From an uncultured Clostridium sp. (lineage in GTDB: Bacteria > Bacillota > Clostridia > TANB77 > CAG-508), in assembly GCA_946639585.1 (NCBI GenBank), contig CAMPBS010000002.1, positions 16,994 through 80,993 of the forward strand: a stretch of DNA of 64,000 nucleotides, written 5' to 3'. This document shows, piece by piece, positions 21,610-59,007 of the stretch; position 1 is the stretch's first letter, and the number at the start of each line of letters is the position of its first letter. Both the position numbers and the translations under genes were made by a program. Below the pieces are notes generated by a model. It did no database searches. It was given only the letters and a program-made list of their open reading frames with translations, and was not told the origin of the DNA.

Positions 21610-22221
21610 ATGATAGATAAAATCTGTGAATTTCTAACCAATAAGATACGAAAGGAAATGCCAGAAATTGATGACGAGAGGGCAGAAATAATAAATTATG
21701 GACTACAAAATATTATAGGAGAAATTCCTAAAATATTTATAACATTGGGAATCGCATTGATATTTGGAATTTTTGATTTAACATTTTACACATTTTTAAT
21801 ATTACTACCATATAAAGCATTTTCAGGAGGATTCCATTTGAAAACACATATTGGTTGTATAATTTGCACAACTGCAATGTATTGTGGAATAGCACTTTTG
21901 AGTAAATACATTATTTTAACTGAAATTGCAAAATACATTTTAATAGCCTTGATTTGGGTATTTGGAATGTGGATGGTAAAATTATATGCGCCAGCAGATA
22001 CAGAAAATGTGCCAATACTAAGGAAAAAAGATAGAAGAAAAAAGCAAATATTATCATACATTGCTTTAACAATTGGGCTTGTTATAGCATTGCTTATCCC
22101 TTATGGAGAAATTGCAAATATATTGATATTTGGCAGTTTCATTCAAACACTTTGTACAACAAAATTTGTTTATAAAATTACAAACAACAAATATGGTTAT
22201 GAAGTGTATGGAAATAGTTAA
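21610..22221 (+). CDS. agrB: accessory gene regulator B (AgrD-processing membrane peptidase)
   Basis: It is a multi-TM protein with the conserved His/Cys motif SGGFHLKTHIGCIICT. Confidence 0.75.
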   Translation: MIDKICEFLTNKIRKEMPEIDDERAEIINYGLQNIIGEIPKIFITLGIALIFGIFDLTFYTFLILLPYKAFSGGFHLKTHIGCIICTTAMYCGIALLSKYIILTEIAKYILIALIWVFGMWMVKLYAPADTENVPILRKKDRRKKQILSYIALTIGLVIALLIPYGEIANILIFGSFIQTLCTTKFVYKITNNKYGYEVYGNS

Positions 22222-22281
22222 AGGATAATAACGACATGAAATGTCGTAATTATAAAAATTATTTTCAAAGGAGGGATTTAT

Positions 22282-22401
22282 ATGTTTAAATTTCTAGCAA
22301 AGGCAGCTGAAAAATATGCAAAGGCAACAAATACTGCATGTTTAGTATTATGGGTGTTACATCAACCTAAAATGCCTACAAGCTTAATAAAAAAAGATTA
22401 A
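22282..22401 (+). CDS. agrD: autoinducing peptide precursor AgrD (39 aa), too short for the ORF track
   Basis: A GGAGGG RBS precedes MFKFLAKAAEKYAKATNTACLVLWVLHQPKMPTSLIKKD. The core motif C-L-V-L-W...HQPxxPxSL matches clostridial AgrD precursors. Confidence 0.7.
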   Translation: MFKFLAKAAEKYAKATNTACLVLWVLHQPKMPTSLIKKD

Positions 22402-22517
22402 TTATAAACATTTAACATAGTTATTAAATTTCCTAGCATTTCGTCAACTATGCTAGGAGATCCTTAAATAAATTTCGACATCCAAAAAGGAAGTGCATAG
22501 CACTTCCTTTTTGGTAT

Positions 22518-23864
22518 CTAATTATAAATTTCAAATTGTTGTGAAAAATACTTATCATCCTTTGTTGTATGTAAATTAAGGTTATTATTGGCTTGTAGTA
22601 TTTTACGAATTTCCCACAAGCCCAATCCAGTATGATTTTCTTTGCTTGTTTTACCTTTTTCAAATATAGCATCGATATCTACATTTTTATCTTTATAAGA
22701 ATTTTCTATTTTTAGATATTGCATATTATTTTTTTCATCATCCTTAAAAGTAACATTTATTATTTTTTCTTCACTTTCTTTTGCAGCATCGATTGCATTA
22801 TCTATTAAGATACCAAATATCTTGGTGAATTCATATATTTTCATATTTATTTTAGATAAATCCCATAATACTGTAATATTCATTTTAATATTTAGTTCTT
22901 CAGCTTCATTATATTTTGTTGTTAATAAACTATATATTCCAGGATTATTTATAATATTTGGATTTAACATATACATTCTATTAACCTTTAAACATTCATC
23001 TTCAAGCTGTGAATAGTATTGTTTCAAGCCTTCCATATCATTTGTTCTTATATATCCGCCAATTGCAGCAACAGTATTATCATAATCATGTTTAAATCCT
23101 CTAATATTATCATGCAAAATTTGTAGTGTTTTATTATATTCTTCAGCATTTTCTAGTCGTTTGGCAGTTAAATATAGTTGATTAGTTTTAGTTAAACTAT
23201 ATATATTTATAGAAAAATATGCCAAAAGGGAAATAAAACTTAATAGAGTTATTATTATTGGCAATGATTCTACATAATATAATGTTATTATAAATTGGAT
23301 TGCTAAAACAACAAAGCCTAATATTAAATTTGTAATTAAAAGTTTTTTAGATTTTTTATCTAAATCTTCCAAGACTCTTATATATAAATTTTTATGTTTT
23401 AATACTTTTATAACTCCAAATGTACATATATAAGAAATAAATAAGTATCCGACTCTATATATAGGTATGCTATGTATTATTTCATAATCAACATTTAAGA
23501 TTTTCATAAAAGGATTTAATACAAGTGTTCCAATTAAAGCATATATTATTGTAGGCAATATAATTGCTAAAATACTTTTCAATATTGAAATTTTAAAAAC
23601 AAATTTTATTGCTAAAAACAAAATAATATAGTTAATAAAAGAATTGAATGGGGCTGGCAAATAAAGAAGCGATATCATTGATGTTAATGATGAGATTAAC
23701 AAATACATTCCTTTTTGTTTTTTACTACCCTTAATATTTAATAAATATAAGAATAAGTATAAAATCAATGCATTTTCGACAATAAATAATGGTAATGCAA
23801 TTAGATTTACTACCCCCTCATTAGGCGTACTTATCGCCGTCCAAATATTACCCCATAAATCCAT
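22518..23864 (-). CDS. agrC: AgrC-like sensor histidine kinase (multi-TM sensor plus HATPase_c)
   Basis: It has 6-7 TM helices, a conserved His region and a GHKL ATPase motif (ILIDNAIDAA...GLGL). It overlaps the agrA stop. Confidence 0.75.
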   Translation of the reverse strand: MDLWGNIWTAISTPNEGVVNLIALPLFIVENALILYLFLYLLNIKGSKKQKGMYLLISSLTSMISLLYLPAPFNSFINYIILFLAIKFVFKISILKSILAIILPTIIYALIGTLVLNPFMKILNVDYEIIHSIPIYRVGYLFISYICTFGVIKVLKHKNLYIRVLEDLDKKSKKLLITNLILGFVVLAIQFIITLYYVESLPIIITLLSFISLLAYFSINIYSLTKTNQLYLTAKRLENAEEYNKTLQILHDNIRGFKHDYDNTVAAIGGYIRTNDMEGLKQYYSQLEDECLKVNRMYMLNPNIINNPGIYSLLTTKYNEAEELNIKMNITVLWDLSKINMKIYEFTKIFGILIDNAIDAAKESEEKIINVTFKDDEKNNMQYLKIENSYKDKNVDIDAIFEKGKTSKENHTGLGLWEIRKILQANNNLNLHTTKDDKYFSQQFEIYN

Positions 23865-24564
23865 AATTATTCAAAACCTCCAACAAATTACTTTTATACT
23901 TAGGACCAATATCGCAACTAAAATTACTATTATTAAAAATAAGTCTATTTTCAACAGGTTCTAAATTACTAATTTTATTTATATTGGCAATATAAGATTT
24001 GTGACATCTAACAAAGTTTTCAGGCAACGTATCTTTTACTTTATTGAATGAACTATAGATTTCATAATCTCTGCTATCAGTGCAAAATACTAGTTTCATA
24101 CCATCTCTTTTAATATAATTGATTTCATTTTCATCAATAATTGTATTTTTATTATCAATTTTTAAATATTTCTTTGGTTTACTATAAATATCATCATATA
24201 ACCTAGTAATAGTTTCTTCTAATCTTTCTTGAGTGATAGGTTTTGAAATATAATCAAAAGTCTTAAATTTATAGGCAACCATGGCATATTCCAAATGACC
24301 TGTTATAAAAATTATATATGTACTTTTATTTTTCGCTCTAATTTCTTGTGCTAATTCAAGACCAGTTTTCTTAGCTTTTAAATTGATATCTAAAAAAACA
24401 ACATCTATATTGTTTGCACAAACATAATTAATAATATTGTCTGGATTGTCAGTTGCAAGTTCAACTTTGGCATCATAATTATATTTTACAAAAATGTTTT
24501 CCATCAAGTTAGAAAGCTTGTTTAAAATATTTAAATTGTCCTCACATATTACAAAACGTAGCAT
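23848..24564 (-). CDS. agrA: AgrA-like LytTR-family response regulator
   Basis: It has a REC domain (VVFLDINL) and a C-terminal LytTR domain. Confidence 0.8.
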   Translation of the reverse strand: MLRFVICEDNLNILNKLSNLMENIFVKYNYDAKVELATDNPDNIINYVCANNIDVVFLDINLKAKKTGLELAQEIRAKNKSTYIIFITGHLEYAMVAYKFKTFDYISKPITQERLEETITRLYDDIYSKPKKYLKIDNKNTIIDENEINYIKRDGMKLVFCTDSRDYEIYSSFNKVKDTLPENFVRCHKSYIANINKISNLEPVENRLIFNNSNFSCDIGPKYKSNLLEVLNNYGFMG

Positions 24565-25579: not shown

Positions 25580-25601
25580 AGGGCCGAATAAAGGAGATGT
25601 T

Positions 25602-26459
25602 ATGGTGGTTGATTTAGAATTATATAGAATATTTAAAATCGTTGCTGATGAAGAAAACTTAACAAGAGCAAGTGAAATATTAAATATTTCACAACCAGCA
25701 GTAACAAAACACATTCACAATTTAGAAGATGAATTAGAAATAAAATTATTTGATAGAACAAAATATGGAATGAAACTAACTATAGATGGAAAACAAATAT
25801 ACAATCAAATAAAAGATGCTATAAACGCATTAATGAGTGTAGAAAATAATTTAAAACAAAATAAAATATTAAATTTGGGAATTCATACAAATATACCAAA
25901 GGAATTATATAGGAATATAATAGCAAAAATAAAGCGAAATAATCTTAATATAGAAGTAAATATTGAAAAAGCACCTACAGAGGATATGTTTTCAATGTTA
26001 GAAAAACAGAAAATTGATGCATATTTATCAAAAAAACAACCAGAAGATATACATAGTGAATTTATAAAATTTATAGAATTAGGAGCTTTTCATGATGATT
26101 TCTTTGTAAATATTAATTCAAAATATTTAGATAAAAGTATTTTGAAAGATGATGAAAAAATTACTATATACACTTTAAGAAATATATCAAGTACAAGTAG
26201 AAATTTGGAAAATATATTAAAAGAAAAGAATTTAAAAAATATAGAAATAAAGAATGCAACATTTAATACAATTATTGAAGAAATGCAGAACAATGATATA
26301 GTTGCATATATAACAGAAGAATATATACAAGAAGAACTTGAAAGTGGTAAATTAAGCAAATTGGAATTAGGAATTGAATCTCCAGCTCTAGAGTATGGAA
26401 TTTATTATAATTCTAATAACAAGATCAAGAATGTTAAGAATTTATTTAAAGATATTTAA
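25602..26459 (+). CDS. LysR-family transcriptional regulator
   Basis: The N-terminal HTH (LTRASEILNISQPAVTKHIHNLEDEL) is followed by a substrate-binding domain. Confidence 0.8.
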   Translation: MVVDLELYRIFKIVADEENLTRASEILNISQPAVTKHIHNLEDELEIKLFDRTKYGMKLTIDGKQIYNQIKDAINALMSVENNLKQNKILNLGIHTNIPKELYRNIIAKIKRNNLNIEVNIEKAPTEDMFSMLEKQKIDAYLSKKQPEDIHSEFIKFIELGAFHDDFFVNINSKYLDKSILKDDEKITIYTLRNISSTSRNLENILKEKNLKNIEIKNATFNTIIEEMQNNDIVAYITEEYIQEELESGKLSKLELGIESPALEYGIYYNSNNKIKNVKNLFKDI

Positions 26460-26593
26460 TAATGAGAATGAGTGCGAGATATAACTTTAAGTTATATCTC
26501 GCACTCATATTTCTATTTTACATAACATAAAGATGTTGCTACAATAAAAGTAATAACAAGGTAGATACCTAATGTGAAATAGGAGGAATTATT

Positions 26594-27670
26594 ATGATTA
26601 ATTATACACTGAATGACCCTACACAGCAAATGCTGATTCCTCATCTTAAGACTACAGAGGAATTGCTATCACGGGTCGCAACCAAACTTTCTGGTGTAAA
26701 GAAGTATGCAGAAATAACGGCTATGCCTGATCTTGGCATTGCACATAACTGCACCCGCATGATGGGTGGATTTTTCACTGGTGCACGATATGTGTGGGAT
26801 TCGACCGTTCCGTTTGTTCCTGTTGATGCAACTGTTAATGTATGTGGCACTGCTGTATTTAAACTTAACAATGAAATTTCCGTCCAGGAATTTCTAGAGA
26901 GAGTTGAAACTGTACTTGCAGACAGAACTCGATATACGTGGAATTACACAAACGGAAATCACTTCATTAGTCTGTGCCGTTCTAACGGTGAATATGGCAC
27001 AGAATCCGGATATTATATGGTGGTTCACGCATCAGCCAACGAGTTTAAGAATGGTCCAAATGGATTGTATCCGAACTTAGACGTTTGGTATTCTAACACT
27101 ATACAGACAGAGTATTTAGAGGGAACGTCAAGATATCTGCGGTATATTGCGGGAGCACCAGCAGAACGTTTTTATGAAATTGCAAAGCGGCTTATCTTGT
27201 TCAACGAAGAGCGCAATCGTTATTTTATTAGAAATGTTCTTAAGGAATATCTGGATAAGGAAGTTCTTAGTGTTCAGCATTATGGAATGCCAAATGACCA
27301 TACTGTTTGTATTGGTATGCACTGGGAGCCAACAACATATACGCTGTTAACTGCACCTGGACGTCCAATTTTCCTTGTAGAGCCTGGCAAAAATTATGAT
27401 GGTTCGCCACATGGTTTTGGTCTGGCAGTTAGGCACACGAATATCGAATTTTCAAGTGACTCAATCACAATTGGAAACAAGACCTTTTATCATGGAGAAA
27501 GCATTAATATAGGCAGTGACGCACTTAATCGTTGTTCTTCTCCAAAAGACAATCTTGATGATTATGTTGGTGAGATTCTTAGTATTTGTCCTGGCAAAAT
27601 TATTGGCAAGCTATATCAGATTGTTTCTATTTCAAAGGATGGAACTAAAATCTGGAAAGATGTAATTTAG
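26594..27670 (+). CDS. hypothetical protein of unknown family, encoded in a higher-G+C islet
   Basis: It is a 358 aa ORF with a strong RBS (aggagg). Its codon and base composition are visibly GC-richer than the flanks, and I see no recognisable motif. Confidence 0.6.
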   Translation: MINYTLNDPTQQMLIPHLKTTEELLSRVATKLSGVKKYAEITAMPDLGIAHNCTRMMGGFFTGARYVWDSTVPFVPVDATVNVCGTAVFKLNNEISVQEFLERVETVLADRTRYTWNYTNGNHFISLCRSNGEYGTESGYYMVVHASANEFKNGPNGLYPNLDVWYSNTIQTEYLEGTSRYLRYIAGAPAERFYEIAKRLILFNEERNRYFIRNVLKEYLDKEVLSVQHYGMPNDHTVCIGMHWEPTTYTLLTAPGRPIFLVEPGKNYDGSPHGFGLAVRHTNIEFSSDSITIGNKTFYHGESINIGSDALNRCSSPKDNLDDYVGEILSICPGKIIGKLYQIVSISKDGTKIWKDVI

Positions 27671-27729
27671 AAAAGATTGAGGAGTGTTTATTGAATGCTC
27701 CTCAGTGTTATTTATGAGGGAGGTTTTTT

Positions 27730-28269
27730 ATGAAAATTGTACTTATGAGGCATGCCGAAACAACGTTTAATAATTCTGGAAGGTTTTGTGGCAGAACTGA
27801 TTGTGACATAACAGAAAACGGAAGAATTACTACAGCTAAATTAGCAAGTATTGAGCCATTCTTATCGGGTTTTACTGCTATGTATGTTTCACCTCTTAAG
27901 CGGACCGTACAAACTTTGATTGCAATTTATCCTAGTTGCAACTACATTGTAGATGAACGTCTGACCGAGATTTCCATTGGCATATGGGAAGGACTTGAGA
28001 AAGCATCTGTCAATCAAAGTGATAGGAAAGCTTTTCTGAAAGGATTATATACTCCGCCTAATGCAGAAGAAAACCACGAAGGCGTAGTTAACCGCATTAT
28101 GAGTCTTTTTAAGGAACTTGACAATTCTTATGATGACTCGGACATTATTCTTTTAGTAACACATAATGGTGTAATACGGACTGTTAAGCAGTTACTTAAA
28201 ATGGATGAGCTTAAGACAAAAAACTCAGATTTTATTATAATTGATTCTAAAGATGTATTTGATTTGTGA
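27730..28269 (+). CDS. histidine phosphatase family protein (phosphoglycerate mutase / CobC-like)
   Basis: It carries an RHAET...G...R catalytic His motif (LMRHAETTFN) and shares the higher-G+C composition of the preceding ORF. Confidence 0.75.
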   Translation: MKIVLMRHAETTFNNSGRFCGRTDCDITENGRITTAKLASIEPFLSGFTAMYVSPLKRTVQTLIAIYPSCNYIVDERLTEISIGIWEGLEKASVNQSDRKAFLKGLYTPPNAEENHEGVVNRIMSLFKELDNSYDDSDIILLVTHNGVIRTVKQLLKMDELKTKNSDFIIIDSKDVFDL

Positions 28270-28330
28270 AAATAAAAGAGCAGATGTTGCTCTTTTGTTT
28301 TTATATGTTTGGTAAGGAGGAAAAGTAAAA

Positions 28331-28924
28331 ATGAATAATGTAACTAATATCTTTTATATACCAGGTACTTCCGGTAATATTTGGGCAACTTATGAGAACT
28401 ATTTAAAAGATGCATGTGAAAAAATGAATATAGATATTACCTTTGTTAATTTCCCATTACAAGAAAAGTGCAAATATAGTGAGTGGGAAAAGGTAATGAA
28501 AGAATATCTTAAACCTAATACAATAAATGAGCATACGTTAATTGTATCTAGATGTGTTGGAAGTAGATTTATAATTAAATATGTATCAGATAATAATATA
28601 AAAGTAAATGGAATTATAGGTATTGCAACTTCATTTAACAACAAACTACTTGTTGAAAGAGAATATGTACAAAGGGTATTACCATTATTTCCAATTACGG
28701 AAGATGTTATAGCTAAAGCCATTGCTAATATTGAAAATAGAATCTTTATATATGGAGATCAAGATCATTTATTTGCAGAAGAATGGTTGAAAGAAACGGC
28801 TGAAATAATGAAGGCTGAAAAAATTTTTATACCAGGACTAAATCACTGTGGAAATAAGTCTGGGATAAAAGAATTTCCAGAATTGATTGACGCGATTAAA
28901 AAGCTGGGAAAATTTGTTATGTAA
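28331..28924 (+). CDS. alpha/beta hydrolase, YdeN/RBBP9-like (putative)
   Basis: The size (~190 aa) and pattern fit the family, but the assignment is tentative. Confidence 0.4.
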   Translation: MNNVTNIFYIPGTSGNIWATYENYLKDACEKMNIDITFVNFPLQEKCKYSEWEKVMKEYLKPNTINEHTLIVSRCVGSRFIIKYVSDNNIKVNGIIGIATSFNNKLLVEREYVQRVLPLFPITEDVIAKAIANIENRIFIYGDQDHLFAEEWLKETAEIMKAEKIFIPGLNHCGNKSGIKEFPELIDAIKKLGKFVM

Positions 28925-45978: not shown

Positions 45979-46022
45979 AAAATATTATGTTAATATGTAA
46001 TTAGTTTTAATTATAAAAGCTT

Positions 46023-46096
46023 GCGAACGTAGCCAAATTGGGAAGGCAACTGCTAGGAGTAGTAGAGATGAGAAGGTTCGAATCCTTCCGTTCGCA
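46023..46096 (+). tRNA. tRNA-like sequence with a defective anticodon arm (probable pseudo-tRNA or integration scar)
   Basis: It has an acceptor stem (GCGAACG/CGTTCGC), a canonical T-arm (GAAGG-TTCGAAT-CCTTC) and a D-arm. The anticodon stem (CTGCT/AGTAG) closes only a 6 nt loop. A terminator hairpin follows at 46101-46130. Confidence 0.4.
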
Positions 46097-46278
46097 TAAA
46101 AATAGAGACTTTGTGTCTCTATTTTTTTATTCTATTATTTTTGTGTTTTAAAAAATATAAAAAATACTTGACAGTCAATATAAATCTATATATAATACAA
46201 ACAAGAATTTGAATACCAATATATATAAATGGAAAATAATGGATGCAAAAATACAATTAAAAGAAAGGAAAACTTAAA

Positions 46279-58933: not shown

Positions 58934-59007
58934 GCGGGTATAGTTTAATGGTAGAATCCCATGCTTCCGACCTGGTGGTGAGGGTTCGATTCCCTCTACC
59001 CGCTCCA
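58934..59007 (+). tRNA. tRNA-Gly (anticodon UCC) with encoded CCA
   Basis: GCGGGUA acceptor stem, GUUUAAUGGUAGAAU D-arm, CUUCCGA anticodon loop (UCC), GAGGG-UUCGAUU-CCCUC T-arm and 3' CCA are all present. Confidence 0.85.

Follow-up and report, generated by a model that had tools for sequence, protein, structure and literature searches.

Gene content of the locus

Within the window, the whole 64,000-nucleotide stretch of DNA analyzed here, three consecutive genes form a unit: a LysR-type regulator, a 358-residue protein that we call X358 or mini-RtcB, and a branch-1 histidine phosphatase (Table 1). The earlier note had described a two-gene islet, and that pair is real and conserved; the LysR gene, however, also lies within a block that begins at 25590 and is shared with other genomes. 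Both predicted open reading frames (358 and 179 aa) are present, as is every peptide segment quoted from them, and the terminator that had been put at about 28275 to 28300 corresponds to a terminator-like hairpin with slightly different limits. The module's neighbors in the window are housekeeping, sporulation, and agr genes, with no defense island among them.

Table 1. Features of the mini-RtcB/phosphatase locus, in window coordinates
Feature	Position	Strand	Details
LysR-type transcriptional regulator	25602..26459	+	285 aa; Pfam HTH_1 6.9e-18 plus LysR_substrate
Perfect 41-nt palindrome with T-rich tail 3' of it	26468..26508	+	terminator scan; 7-locus comparison
Sigma-70-type promoter of the mini-RtcB/phosphatase operon	26517..26545	+	10/12 consensus match
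Small dyad AGGTA-GA-TACCT, possible second operator	26559..26570	+	near-invariant in 7-locus alignment
AGGAGG ribosome-binding site	26581-26586	+	3' of the small dyad
X358 ("mini-RtcB")	26594..27670	+	358 aa; diverged RtcB-superfamily enzyme (by modeled fold)
Intergenic 14-bp hairpin between X358 and phosphatase	27676..27706	+	terminator-like scan
Branch-1 histidine phosphatase	27730..28269	+	179 aa; Pfam His_Phos_1 4.3e-32
Terminator-like hairpin with T-tract, operon end	28265..28305	+	terminator scan
197-aa ORF, weakly alpha/beta-hydrolase-like	28331..28924	+	Pfam Ser_hydrolase E 0.055 only

The hairpin between the two enzyme genes may act as an attenuator or affect mRNA stability. Downstream of the operon, the 197-aa ORF has host-like GC content (0.281), adjoins the pair in the window and in loci L006 and L010, and is absent from L007 to L009; it is a separate single-gene insertion or deletion outside the module core.

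Composition and horizontal transfer

In 500-bp windows, GC content is 0.390, 0.400, and 0.360 across positions 26501 to 28000 and 0.21 to 0.31 in the flanks, in agreement with an earlier by-eye estimate of about 40% against less than 30%. The rise begins at about 26560 to 26600, where the earlier note had put it (26590), and fades by about 28100 to 28250, inside the 3' end of the phosphatase gene rather than at 28270. Gene by gene, GC content is 0.396 for X358, 0.354 for the phosphatase, and 0.221 for LysR, against 0.281 for the whole window. At third codon positions, X358 (GC3 0.318; z = 3.75) ranks first among the 60 long ORFs used as reference (mean about 0.17, standard deviation about 0.04), and the phosphatase reaches 0.278 (z = 2.76). 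The codon use of X358 is strongly atypical, as had been noticed for CTG, GGC, and ACC across the islet: CTG makes up 25% of Leu codons (background 1.3%), CGG 18% of Arg codons (0.2%), GGC 25% of Gly codons (8.6%), and ACC 14% of Thr codons (3.7%), and the RSCU distance to the background is 0.246, compared with a gene mean of 0.120 (standard deviation 0.030). By these measures the pair is compositionally foreign.

The first and second codon positions of X358 are also raised (GC1 0.485 and GC2 0.387), so part of the GC excess is compositional. Distant homologs from equally AT-rich hosts have GC3 values of 0.11 to 0.15, which argues that the protein has no need of GC-rich codons. The excess is confined to the clade around the window copy; in lineages where the X358 homolog has host-like GC3, the gene is still about 0.02 to 0.03 richer in GC than its flanks.

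The block from 25590 to 28315 shares 94.7% identity with another species (L005/L006), whereas the flanks share 66 to 73%. Its start in this comparison takes in the low-GC LysR gene, and high identity to L005, L008, and L009 stops at about 28081 to 28315. Together with the GC3 and codon statistics, these identities support horizontal exchange of the module and its acquisition by this genome in that way, as had been proposed. Neighbors at other loci include Mob_Pre, serine recombinase, and RepA_N genes, and the module moves between low-GC gut Firmicutes, often next to relaxases, serine recombinases, or a plasmid replication gene. A metagenome scan for a GC-rich donor recovered close relatives alone. 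One contig (L097) has DNA of 41% GC 3' of the pair, and was set aside as probably chimeric. Its phosphatase gene breaks off at the junction, unrelated housekeeping genes follow, and the contig name gives a coverage of about 3.

Regulatory region

In 32 of 80 loci, distant ones included, the gene directly upstream (position -1, same strand) encodes a LysR regulator, and the adjacency is kept in relatives whose LysR is only 48 to 50% identical. LysR is the predicted dedicated regulator of the module, inside the horizontally shared block despite its low GC content. A STAND-like protein of about 770 aa is encoded divergently in 21 to 25 loci.

The palindrome 3' of the LysR gene is built as 20 + T + 20 and forms a 19-bp stem closed by a 3-nt loop; the stem had been seen before but assigned to 26467 to 26507, with a TTAA loop. 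Across seven related loci, compensatory changes are seen in 8 of its 19 pairs, and none of the inner 7 varies. The core, ATATAAC-N5-GTTATAT, matches a LysR-type T-N11-A box, and TAAC-N5-GTTA is invariant in 6/7 relatives. Its center (26488) is about 64 bp 5' of the predicted start site, where LysR proteins classically have their regulatory site. The promoter consists of TTTACA, a 17-nt spacer with an extended -10 TG, and TACAAT, and both hexamers are kept in all seven aligned relatives.

We infer that the palindrome is the intrinsic terminator of the LysR gene and that it carries a candidate LysR box at the classical position; its role is that of a terminator and/or LysR box in a conserved LysR–mini-RtcB regulatory region. 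With the two LysR domains, the adjacency at 32 loci, and a T-N11-A box near -65, the unit has the makeup of a LysR-type operon. Expression is probably inducible, since the box precedes the operon promoter by about 64 bp. The hairpin does not mark the islet boundary as the earlier note had supposed, because the shared block starts further 5', at 25590, and takes in the LysR gene. An insertion scar or attachment site was likewise considered and rejected: every close relative keeps the hairpin together with the promoter, and the block in common reaches 5' of the hairpin.

Relationship of X358 to RtcB

X358, which the earlier note could not place, was assigned by structure prediction. Its AF2 model (pLDDT 94) returned RtcB chains as the sole significant Foldseek matches, and the predicted structure has the RtcB three-dimensional fold. 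The sequences themselves are only about 11 to 14% identical. X358 gave no match to Pfam PF01139 or NCBIfam RtcB at E <= 0.1, none to PDB in sequence (phmmer) or profile searches at E <= 10, and none in PADLOC or PHROGs; an RtcB profile scanned over the window also found no match. With hhalign, a single E. coli RtcB gave a weak 43-column match. Against an alignment of 12 RtcB sequences, in which profile diversity is limited (the E. coli RtcB homologs retrieved are all at least 71% identical), the local comparison covered 24 columns, GNHF...H only (E 1.6e-4, 50% probability), and the global one (E 2.6e-4) had a mis-registered N-terminus. Because these matches are weak or short and the N-terminus is out of register, we use them as support and not as proof. 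By its modeled fold, X358 is a compact and strongly diverged representative of the RtcB 3'-phosphate/5'-OH ligase superfamily.

In Pyrococcus horikoshii (Pho) RtcB, the binuclear metal ligands are Asp95, Cys98, His203, His234, and His329, GMP is accepted by His404 (His337 in E. coli, motif HGAGR), and guanine-specific contacts are made by Glu206 and Lys480 (PMC9745838). X358 has D78, C84, N122, H123, F124, H145, H229, and H273-G-x-G invariant among 46 homologs. H123, H145, H229, and H273 occur in 72/72 standalone representatives and D78 and C84 in most of them, with Asp at the Cys84 position in 15; these six residues are also kept in nearly all of the 39 fused representatives. Their motif order is that of E. 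coli RtcB (D75/C78, N167-H168, H185, H281, H337). The residue equivalences derive from motif order and a low-confidence global alignment, not from residue-level structural superposition: the N122-H123...H145 segment alone aligns locally (the 24-column match), the pairing of H229 with H281 comes from the weak global alignment, that of D78/C84 comes from motif order only, and H273 aligned to S-H337-G-A-G of E. coli in two independent hhalign runs. We predict a two-metal site made up of D78, C84, H123, H145, and H229 and a nucleotidyl-acceptor at H273 in the motif PHGxG.

Compared with canonical RtcB (PF01139; E. coli, P. horikoshii, and human RTCB), X358 has the same succession of motifs (MPD; D..C-G; GNHF; H-S/A-S; H; HGxG) and a similar C-terminal strand, L-x-Q-V/I...K-G. 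It is, however, 50 to 120 residues shorter, mostly between the Cys motif and GNHF (39 residues, compared with 90 in E. coli), and has the spacing D-x5-C instead of D-x2-C. The guanine-specific contacts are not retained: the Glu206 equivalent (position 126), which is Glu in the RtcB motif GNHFxE, is S, I, T, V, or M. Conservation of K348 reaches 90% or more in close homologs; across representatives the position is K, R, or a gap. The counterpart of RtcB Asn330 is an invariant Tyr, and the Arg following HGAG is absent. Given the lost Glu, the Asn-to-Tyr replacement, and the absent Arg, the nucleotide specificity of X358, or the reaction itself, may differ from that of RtcB. The genetic setting differs as well, RtcB having RtcA or Archease as partner and RtcR as regulator, where X358 has a histidine phosphatase and a LysR or STAND-like regulator.

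The partner phosphatase

The second gene had been called a histidine phosphatase, and it encodes a genuine, catalytically intact one. It scores 111.8 bits against PF00300 (cutoff 21.7), and the branch-1 pattern Arg-His...Arg...Glu...His is complete (R7, H8, R58, E80, H145). Among 65 partner phosphatases, R7, H8, N14, R58, and E80 are found in at least 63 and H145 in 50, the window copy included, and E114 and R122 are subfamily-specific invariants. These invariants, the short length (179 aa), scores under the cutoff of every NCBIfam equivalog, and the RtcB-like neighbor gene distinguish it from the branch-1 enzymes CobC, PspA, SixA, and dPGM, with which it shares the PF00300 match (4e-32) and the catalytic residues. 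The best NCBIfam match is alpha-ribazole phosphatase CobC (TIGR03162), at 79.2 bits, well short of the cutoff of 162.9; a search against PADLOC gave one weak match, to CARF_HEPN (E 0.022).

In about 64 of 80 loci (60 by ORF call and 4 by tblastn), the phosphatase gene follows directly (position +1, same strand); it is wanting in about 10 and present only as a remnant in 3 or 4. It also adjoins every distant relative sampled, that is, long forms with TIR, Metallophos, P-loop, or unknown N-termini and a distant short form, where it frequently overlaps the upstream gene. In L077 and L078 it is fused to a glycerophosphodiester phosphodiesterase (GDPD) domain. Co-occurrence, which the earlier note had pointed to as a check on the pair, is nearly constant, and the phosphatase is the conserved partner of mini-RtcB in one operon, a conserved two-gene module. 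A toxin-antitoxin pair with the phosphatase as antidote is unlikely, because the X358 homolog is intact at three loci where the phosphatase has decayed (L007, L042, and L052).

Family size and long relatives

The X358 family is small, with 331 clusters among 1.84 billion proteins. Its long relatives are all built alike: after a variable N-terminus come a PLD-fold middle domain and the RtcB-like domain, and the phosphatase gene follows. The N-terminus is TIR_2 (PADLOC "TIR-TM," 7e-38), a calcineurin-like metallophosphoesterase (matching PADLOC "Effector/Endonuclease," PDC-S60, and NCBIfam "anti-phage phosphoesterase"), or a STAND/AAA P-loop domain; PADLOC effector models match only these N-termini, which belong to distant long relatives. 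Immediately upstream in L086 are ThsB-type TIR and caspase-like genes, a YobI-like NTPase gene lies downstream in L089, and GAPDH-like and PHP genes lie downstream in L093.

Many loci are on mobile elements. No X358 relative was found among the 2.9 million viral contigs of IMG/VR or among PLSDB plasmids. A single "phage" match, an unverified 7-kb fecal scaffold carrying a relaxase, is more likely a mobilizable element. The sampled neighborhoods contained no cyclase or signal synthase, and biosynthetic or transport genes had no consistent linkage to the pair. In full-text literature searches, we found no description of an RtcB-like/histidine-phosphatase pair or an RtcB-like–TIR fusion and no characterized histidine phosphatase tied genetically to an RtcB-like gene.

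Proposed function and alternatives

The reading that we favor, and think rather probable as an explanation of the whole, is that an RtcB-like enzyme and its phosphatase form a foreign, LysR-controlled module for joining RNA or oligonucleotide ends. The palindrome would end LysR transcription, and the LysR box would make expression of the operon inducible. By motif correspondence, X358 keeps the Mn2+-binding and GMP-accepting residues of RtcB, so it most likely attaches an NMP to its own His273. The NMP would then pass from His273 to the terminal phosphate of a substrate, and attack by a hydroxyl on the activated phosphate would yield a phosphodiester, so that RNA or oligonucleotide ends are joined or circularized. 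Phosphate-end joining of this kind is the most likely chemistry. The phosphatase would remove a phosphate end that competes or is left over, or return the system to its starting state, and candidate triggers are repair of RNA damaged by toxins or phages and immune signaling. Canonical RtcB works without a phosphatase, and some loci lack one or keep a remnant; both points count against this reading, as does the weakness of the sequence matches to RtcB. The LysR regulator, the GDPD-fused phosphatase, and the CobC-like best match are equally compatible with small-molecule metabolism.

The heal-and-seal RNA repair systems, bacterial Pnkp/Hen1 and T4 Pnkp/Rnl, likewise combine an end-remodeling phosphoesterase with a ligase that acts through a covalent enzyme-NMP. 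Bacterial Pnkp has the domain order kinase-metallophosphatase-ligase, which the Metallophos-...-ligase-like order of long relatives P0193 and P0196 recalls. In contrast, the ligases of these repair systems depend on ATP, form lysine-adenylyl intermediates, and join 3'-OH to 5'-phosphate ends. For RtcB-type chemistry the ends must be the other way round, and a 3'-phosphatase would then work against ligation. The module also has neither a kinase nor a Hen1 methyltransferase.

A possible but doubtful alternative is that the RtcB-like protein and the phosphatase form the core of an as yet undescribed conflict or antiphage system. Instead of repairing RNA, the RtcB-like domain would detect or produce a nucleotide or RNA-end signal, one conceivable route being the capping or cyclization of 3'-phosphate oligonucleotides; the phosphatase would turn the signal off, and the short form in the window would be effector-less or regulator-controlled. 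Immune proteins characteristically exchange their N-terminal effector domains, and the uniform layout of the long relatives, with TIR, phosphoesterase, or P-loop N-termini, is consistent with this, as are the ThsB-type TIR and caspase-like genes in L086, the YobI-like NTPase in L089, and carriage on mobile elements. The long relatives resemble immune proteins of the CBASS, Thoeris, and Pycsar type, in which TIR or nuclease domains are fused to sensors, in that their swappable N-termini match PADLOC effector models, but the C-terminus is PLD-like plus RtcB-like with a conserved catalytic site and not SAVED, STING, CARF, or SLOG. Known defense models do not recognize X358 and reach the phosphatase only through the marginal PADLOC match, and the window copy, which has neither an effector nor a PLD-like domain, sits among housekeeping, sporulation, and agr genes. 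The lack of relatives among viral contigs and the resemblance of the metallophosphoesterase-plus-ligase layout to bacterial Pnkp RNA repair weigh against it too. In its broadest form, which we would put forward only tentatively, the RtcB-like domain and an obligate phosphatase would be the engine of an unrecognized immune or conflict family whose signal controls TIR, nuclease, and NTPase effectors. His-NMP phosphate activation followed by ligation, capping, or cyclization may sense RNA damage or make or erase an oligonucleotide signal, and the LysR-controlled short form may be its minimal, mobile version. The suggestion in the earlier note of a defense or nucleotide-modification module appears plausible from the domain fusions and immune-type neighbors of distant relatives.

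Less likely still is a small-molecule enzyme couple under metabolite control, in which an NMP-activated phosphomonoester metabolite is coupled to an alcohol and the phosphatase removes the phosphate. Such a couple would resemble cobamide nucleotide-loop assembly, in which CobU and CobS use GMP-activated chemistry and CobC removes the remaining phosphate. LysR-type and STAND/MalT-like regulators, both found near the module, are typically metabolite sensing. The CobC match, the GDPD fusion, the GAPDH-like and PHP genes in L093, and the loss of the guanine-specific Glu agree with such a couple. Yet the CobC score is far under its cutoff, no biosynthetic or transport genes are consistently linked, and TIR, PLD-like, and nuclease-type fusions with carriage on mobile elements are unlike a metabolic pathway; moreover, every characterized RtcB-fold enzyme works on polynucleotide ends (PMC9745838, PMC8051266).

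Very improbable is the idea that nothing here is foreign and that native genes owe their GC content to amino-acid composition or expression-linked codon choice: the raised GC1 and GC2 and the slight excess over flanks in host-like lineages fit it, but it is largely refuted by the top GC3 rank, the low GC3 of distant homologs, the 20- to 90-fold enrichment of rare codons such as CTG and CGG, and the 94.7% identical block between flanks of about 67%.

Significance

To our knowledge, 3'-phosphate and 5'-OH ends are sealed by RtcB and by no other enzyme class, and RtcB has been regarded as one well-delimited family. The predicted fold of X358 points to a second, very diverged RtcB branch that current family models miss. 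Not described for RtcB are its near-obligatory histidine-phosphatase partner, its dedicated LysR or STAND-like regulators, and its fused versions with TIR, PLD-like, metallophosphoesterase, and P-loop domains. A testable functional hypothesis also follows for several hundred protein clusters currently annotated as "hypothetical." If X358 is active, it would add to the RNA- and oligonucleotide-end chemistry known from gut Firmicutes and may link RNA-end ligation to bacterial immunity.

Predicted fold and active site of X358

Searches of Pfam, NCBIfam, PADLOC, PHROGs, and PDB sequences gave no match for the 358-aa protein X358, either as a single sequence or as a profile. Its 513 homologs in a 5.8-billion-cluster protein collection are all unnamed, and 331 family members were all that an exhaustive profile search found among 1.84 billion representatives. 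An alignment of 46 of the 513 homologs revealed invariant residues in the N-terminal half (D46, R55, G58-G59, D78, T80, N82, and C84-G85), the middle (W116-N117, G121-N122-H123, H145-A-S147, E150, and K152), and the C-terminal half (H229-Y-G231, P233, H273-G-x-G276, R313, and Q342). The AlphaFold2 model built from this alignment is very confident (pLDDT 94, pTM 0.91). Because its significant Foldseek matches in the PDB are RtcB RNA ligases only (zebrafish and human RTCB and Pyrococcus horikoshii RtcB; E 2.5e-7 to 3e-5, probability 1.00), with the best match after the RtcB chains at E 0.2, X358, which an earlier note could not place, is by its predicted structure an RtcB-fold protein (“mini-RtcB”).

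In P. horikoshii RtcB, metal M1 is held by Cys98, His234, and His329 and metal M2 by Asp95, Cys98, and His203; Asn202 touches the GTP phosphates, His404 is the GMP acceptor, and guanine is read by Glu206 and Lys480 (PMC9745838). The E. coli RtcB sequence served as our reference, and P. horikoshii numbering was checked against HMMER alignments. We take the E. coli equivalents to be Asp75, Cys78, His168, His185, and His281, with His337 as the nucleophile. Profile-profile comparison weakly backs the correspondence of motifs proposed below: the local match is limited to residues 120-148 of X358 and 165-188 of E. coli RtcB (E 1.6e-4, probability 50%), and the global alignment matches H229/H281, H273/H337 (also matched in an initial comparison with the single E. 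coli sequence), and both C-terminal strands.

Candidate motif correspondence between X358 and E. coli RtcB
X358	E. coli RtcB	Motif or role in RtcB
A-M-P-D46	V-M-P-D48	Conserved N-terminal motif
D78-ATVNV-C84-G	D75-IG-C78-G	Metal ligands
G-N122-H123-F	G-N167-H168-F	Phosphate contact and metal ligand
V-H145-A-S	L-H185-S-G-S	Metal ligand
Q-H229-Y-G	H-H281-N-Y	Metal ligand
S-P-H273-G-F-G	C-S-H337-G-A-G	Nucleophilic His
L-Y-Q-I-V-S-I-S-K348-D-G	L-R-Q-V-V-C-V-K-G	C-terminal strand with Lys

All 72 standalone representatives keep H123, H145, H229, and H273, and 70 keep D78; C84, the predicted bridging metal ligand, is kept in 57 and replaced by Asp in 15 (among family representatives P0121-P0268). 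Among 39 long fused relatives, nearly all keep the candidate ligands as well. Compared with RtcB, X358 is 50 to 120 residues shorter, with the main deletion between the Cys motif and the GNHF stretch; it has D-x5-C rather than D-x2-C spacing and lacks the Arg after HGxG, and across its family the residue equivalent to Glu206 is S, I, V, or T and that equivalent to Asn330 is an invariant Tyr. Given this conservation and these differences, the catalytic core looks intact, and nucleotide specificity may differ from that of RtcB.

Pairing with a histidine phosphatase

The 179-aa protein encoded downstream clearly belongs to His_Phos_1 (Pfam, 4.3e-32) and falls under the cutoffs of all named NCBIfam equivalogs (best, CobC, 79 bits versus 162.9). 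Its catalytic set (R7, H8, R58, E80, and H145) is complete and conserved among 65 partner phosphatases; 15 of the 65 have Ser in place of the second catalytic His (H145), which may mark one copy of tandem pairs.

With one genome scanned per species, 80 loci were obtained, all on uncultured gut MAGs that carry the label Clostridia, Bacilli, Clostridium, or Tenericutes. ORF calling placed a phosphatase gene directly 3′ of X358 on the same strand at 60 loci, and tblastn added downstream phosphatases at 4; at 3 to 4 the gene is reduced to remnants, and at ∼12 (two on contigs that stop right after X358) it was not detected. Two tandem phosphatases occur at 12 loci. Every distant relative whose context was fetched likewise has His_Phos_1 directly 3′, frequently overlapping: TIR-fused (851 aa, L086), Metallophos-fused (1049 aa, L087 and L088), P-loop/STAND-fused (1062 aa, L089), 866 aa (L090-L092), short (359 aa, L093), and 856 aa on an unverified “phage” scaffold (L094). 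On these counts and relatives, no feature of the family is more conserved than pairing with the phosphatase.

At most other loci the two genes abut or overlap; in the window, a 14-bp hairpin (GAGGAG.../...CTCCTC) that may be an attenuator separates the mini-RtcB stop codon from the phosphatase ribosome-binding site. At L077:4697-6454 and L078:3265-5022, loci that also carry a RepA_N plasmid initiator, the partner is a 585-aa fusion of His_Phos_1, glycerophosphodiester phosphodiesterase (GDPD), and a C-terminal region that has no domain assignment. A metallo-beta-lactamase-fold hydrolase recurs by the pair in unrelated loci (L056, L065, and L066 at −1; L019-L023 at +2), and the one at L093:208-984 matches the anti-Pycsar Apyc1 family.

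Features of the window (whole-window GC, 0.281)
Feature	Coordinates	Strand	GC	GC3	Note
glmS	15414-17252				Ribozyme upstream
glmS ribozyme	17353-17506	−			Rfam RF00234, 83 bits
AgrB	21610-22221	+
ORF, ∼39 aa	∼22282-22401				Probably AgrD
Histidine kinase	22518-23864	−			HATPase_c_5
Response regulator	23848-24564	−			LytTR
LysR	25602-26459		0.221	0.122	HTH_1, LysR_substrate (Pfam)
Palindrome	26468-26508				20 + T + 20
Promoter	26517-26545				TTTACA-17(TG)-TACAAT
Small dyad	3′ of promoter				AGGTA-GA-TACCT
X358	26594-27670	+	0.396	0.318	358 aa
Hairpin	27676-27706				14 bp
Phosphatase	27730-28269	+	0.354	0.278	179 aa
Hairpin	28265-28305				Terminator-like
197-aa ORF	28331-28924		0.281	0.187	Weak alpha/beta-hydrolase match
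tRNA-Pro	46022-46097	+			Anticodon AGG, unusual in bacteria (ARAGORN)
tRNA-Gly	58934-59007				TCC

Regulation

In 32 loci the same-strand gene at −1 encodes a LysR regulator; among them are relatives whose LysR is 48 to 50% identical. In 21 to 25 other loci (among L011-L016 and L034-L076; e.g., L013:3448-5769, minus strand), its place is taken by a divergently oriented gene for a ∼770-aa protein without a Pfam or NCBIfam match, which, from its Walker-A motif (SGKT) and repeat-rich helical C terminus, looks like a STAND-type regulator. Seven relatives share a conserved LysR-X358 intergenic region. The perfect 19-bp stem reported in the earlier note is present, with shifted coordinates, a 3-nt loop, and a T-rich tail; 8 of its 19 pairs show compensatory changes in the seven relatives, and the inner ATATAAC-N5-GTTATAT is unvaried. 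Its center, 26488, is ∼64 bp 5′ of the predicted start site, and its core is a T-N11-A motif; such a distance and such a core are each classical for LysR regulatory sites. Compensatory changes suit a terminator hairpin or an operator alike, so the palindrome could be either or both. A complete agr-like quorum-sensing cassette (21610-24564) lies just 5′ of the LysR-X358-phosphatase module.

Composition, exchange, and mobility

Both ORFs exist as the earlier note described, and its reading of a compositionally foreign islet, GC-richer and with deviant codon usage, is borne out. GC is 0.39, 0.40, and 0.36 across 26501-28000 in 500-bp windows versus 0.21 to 0.31 around; a finer profile peaks at 0.467 (26675-26824) and moves the limits of the span to ∼26560-26600, where GC climbs, and ∼28100-28250, where it drops back below 0.30. 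Among 60 non-overlapping long ORFs, GC3 ranks first for X358 (z 3.75) and third for the phosphatase (z 2.76). Strongly atypical codons include CTG/Leu (25% versus 1.3%), CGG/Arg (18% versus 0.2%), and GGC/Gly (25% versus 8.6%), and the RSCU distance is 0.246 versus a gene mean of 0.120 (sd 0.030).

Horizontal acquisition of the pair, also proposed earlier, agrees with comparisons of related contigs. The block shared with L005 and L006 (25590 to 28081 and 28315, respectively) matches at 94.7% versus 66 to 73% in the flanks; the values are 85% versus 65 to 68% for L008 (25590-28271) and 80% versus 66 to 73% for L009 (25590-28254). As the block begins 12 nt 5′ of the LysR start codon, the exchanged or conserved unit takes in LysR, and the palindrome is not the upstream bound it was thought to be. 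The block ends past the operon terminator, the downstream terminator-like hairpin, whose coordinates in the earlier note needed a minor correction.

In a neighbor-joining tree of 78 X358 proteins, the GC excess over flanks is restricted to two groups, the window's own clade (+0.08 to +0.14) and the clade sister to it (L011-L014/L079; +0.07 to +0.10); in a third group the excess is moderate (+0.04 to +0.07), and most remaining lineages have host-like GC3 (0.11 to 0.15). The sister clade has the STAND-like regulator, not LysR, and its similarity to the window starts at 26581, the X358 ribosome-binding site. Read most simply, a GC-richer X358-phosphatase pair would have replaced, or landed behind, a low-GC LysR.

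In other lineages the pair adjoins Mob_Pre relaxases, serine recombinases, a RepA_N plasmid initiator, and integrases. Contigs of several independent metagenomes encode identical proteins, and the four contigs shown agree in gene arrangement. In the closest relatives, serine recombinase gene pairs are inserted directly right of the cassette (L006:8435-11665, L007:7614-9240, and L008), which suggests an integration hot spot. A separate insertion/deletion of one gene accounts for the 197-aa ORF, which comes after the phosphatase in the window, L006, and L010 and is absent from L007-L009, where the phosphatase region abuts the 50 nt found after this ORF in the window.

A metagenome scan found no donor genome. 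The sole GC-rich flank, L097:3534-8804, has LysR and mini-RtcB followed by 41% GC DNA with ApbE, a PP-loop ATPase, a TPR/PD40 protein, and NfeD; it is probably a chimeric assembly and not a donor element, given that the GC junction truncates the phosphatase and that coverage, per the contig name, is ∼3.

Fused relatives and proposed function

Some 40 representatives are 560 to 1060 aa long, with the RtcB-like domain C-terminal, a common middle domain of ∼250 aa, and an N terminus that is TIR_2, calcineurin-like phosphoesterase, STAND/AAA P-loop, or unassigned. In the AlphaFold2 model of one family representative, P0181, overall pLDDT is 76, and the middle and C-terminal domains are mostly >80. 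The N termini match PADLOC “TIR-TM” (7e-38), “Effector/Endonuclease,” and PDC-S60, and NCBIfam “anti-phage phosphoesterase”; at L086, genes for a ThsB-type TIR and a caspase-like protein lie directly upstream. Swappable effector-like N termini on a constant core, together with carriage on mobile elements, are typical of conflict systems and lend some support, at the family level, to the defense role first suggested. The window copy has neither a TIR, phosphoesterase, or P-loop N terminus nor the middle domain, gave no convincing PADLOC match, and sits between the agr-like locus and sporulation genes; we regard immune signalling or sensing by X358 and the phosphatase as possible but rather unlikely.

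By analogy with RtcB, X358 would bind two divalent metals, form a His273-NMP adduct, and pass the NMP to the terminal phosphate of its substrate, hydroxyl attack then giving a phosphodiester; the phosphatase would remodel a phosphate end or reset the system. RNA or oligonucleotide ends are the most probable substrates, since all RtcB-fold enzymes characterized to our knowledge work on polynucleotide ends. Small-molecule phosphodiester chemistry by the pair, which LysR control, the GDPD-fused phosphatase, and the CobC-like best match would favor, we consider improbable.

Our full-text searches of the literature turned up no description of the X358 family or its phosphatase pairing, and curated models do not detect the family. 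We rate it as a second, cryptic RtcB-superfamily branch whose obligate partner and architectures are new.
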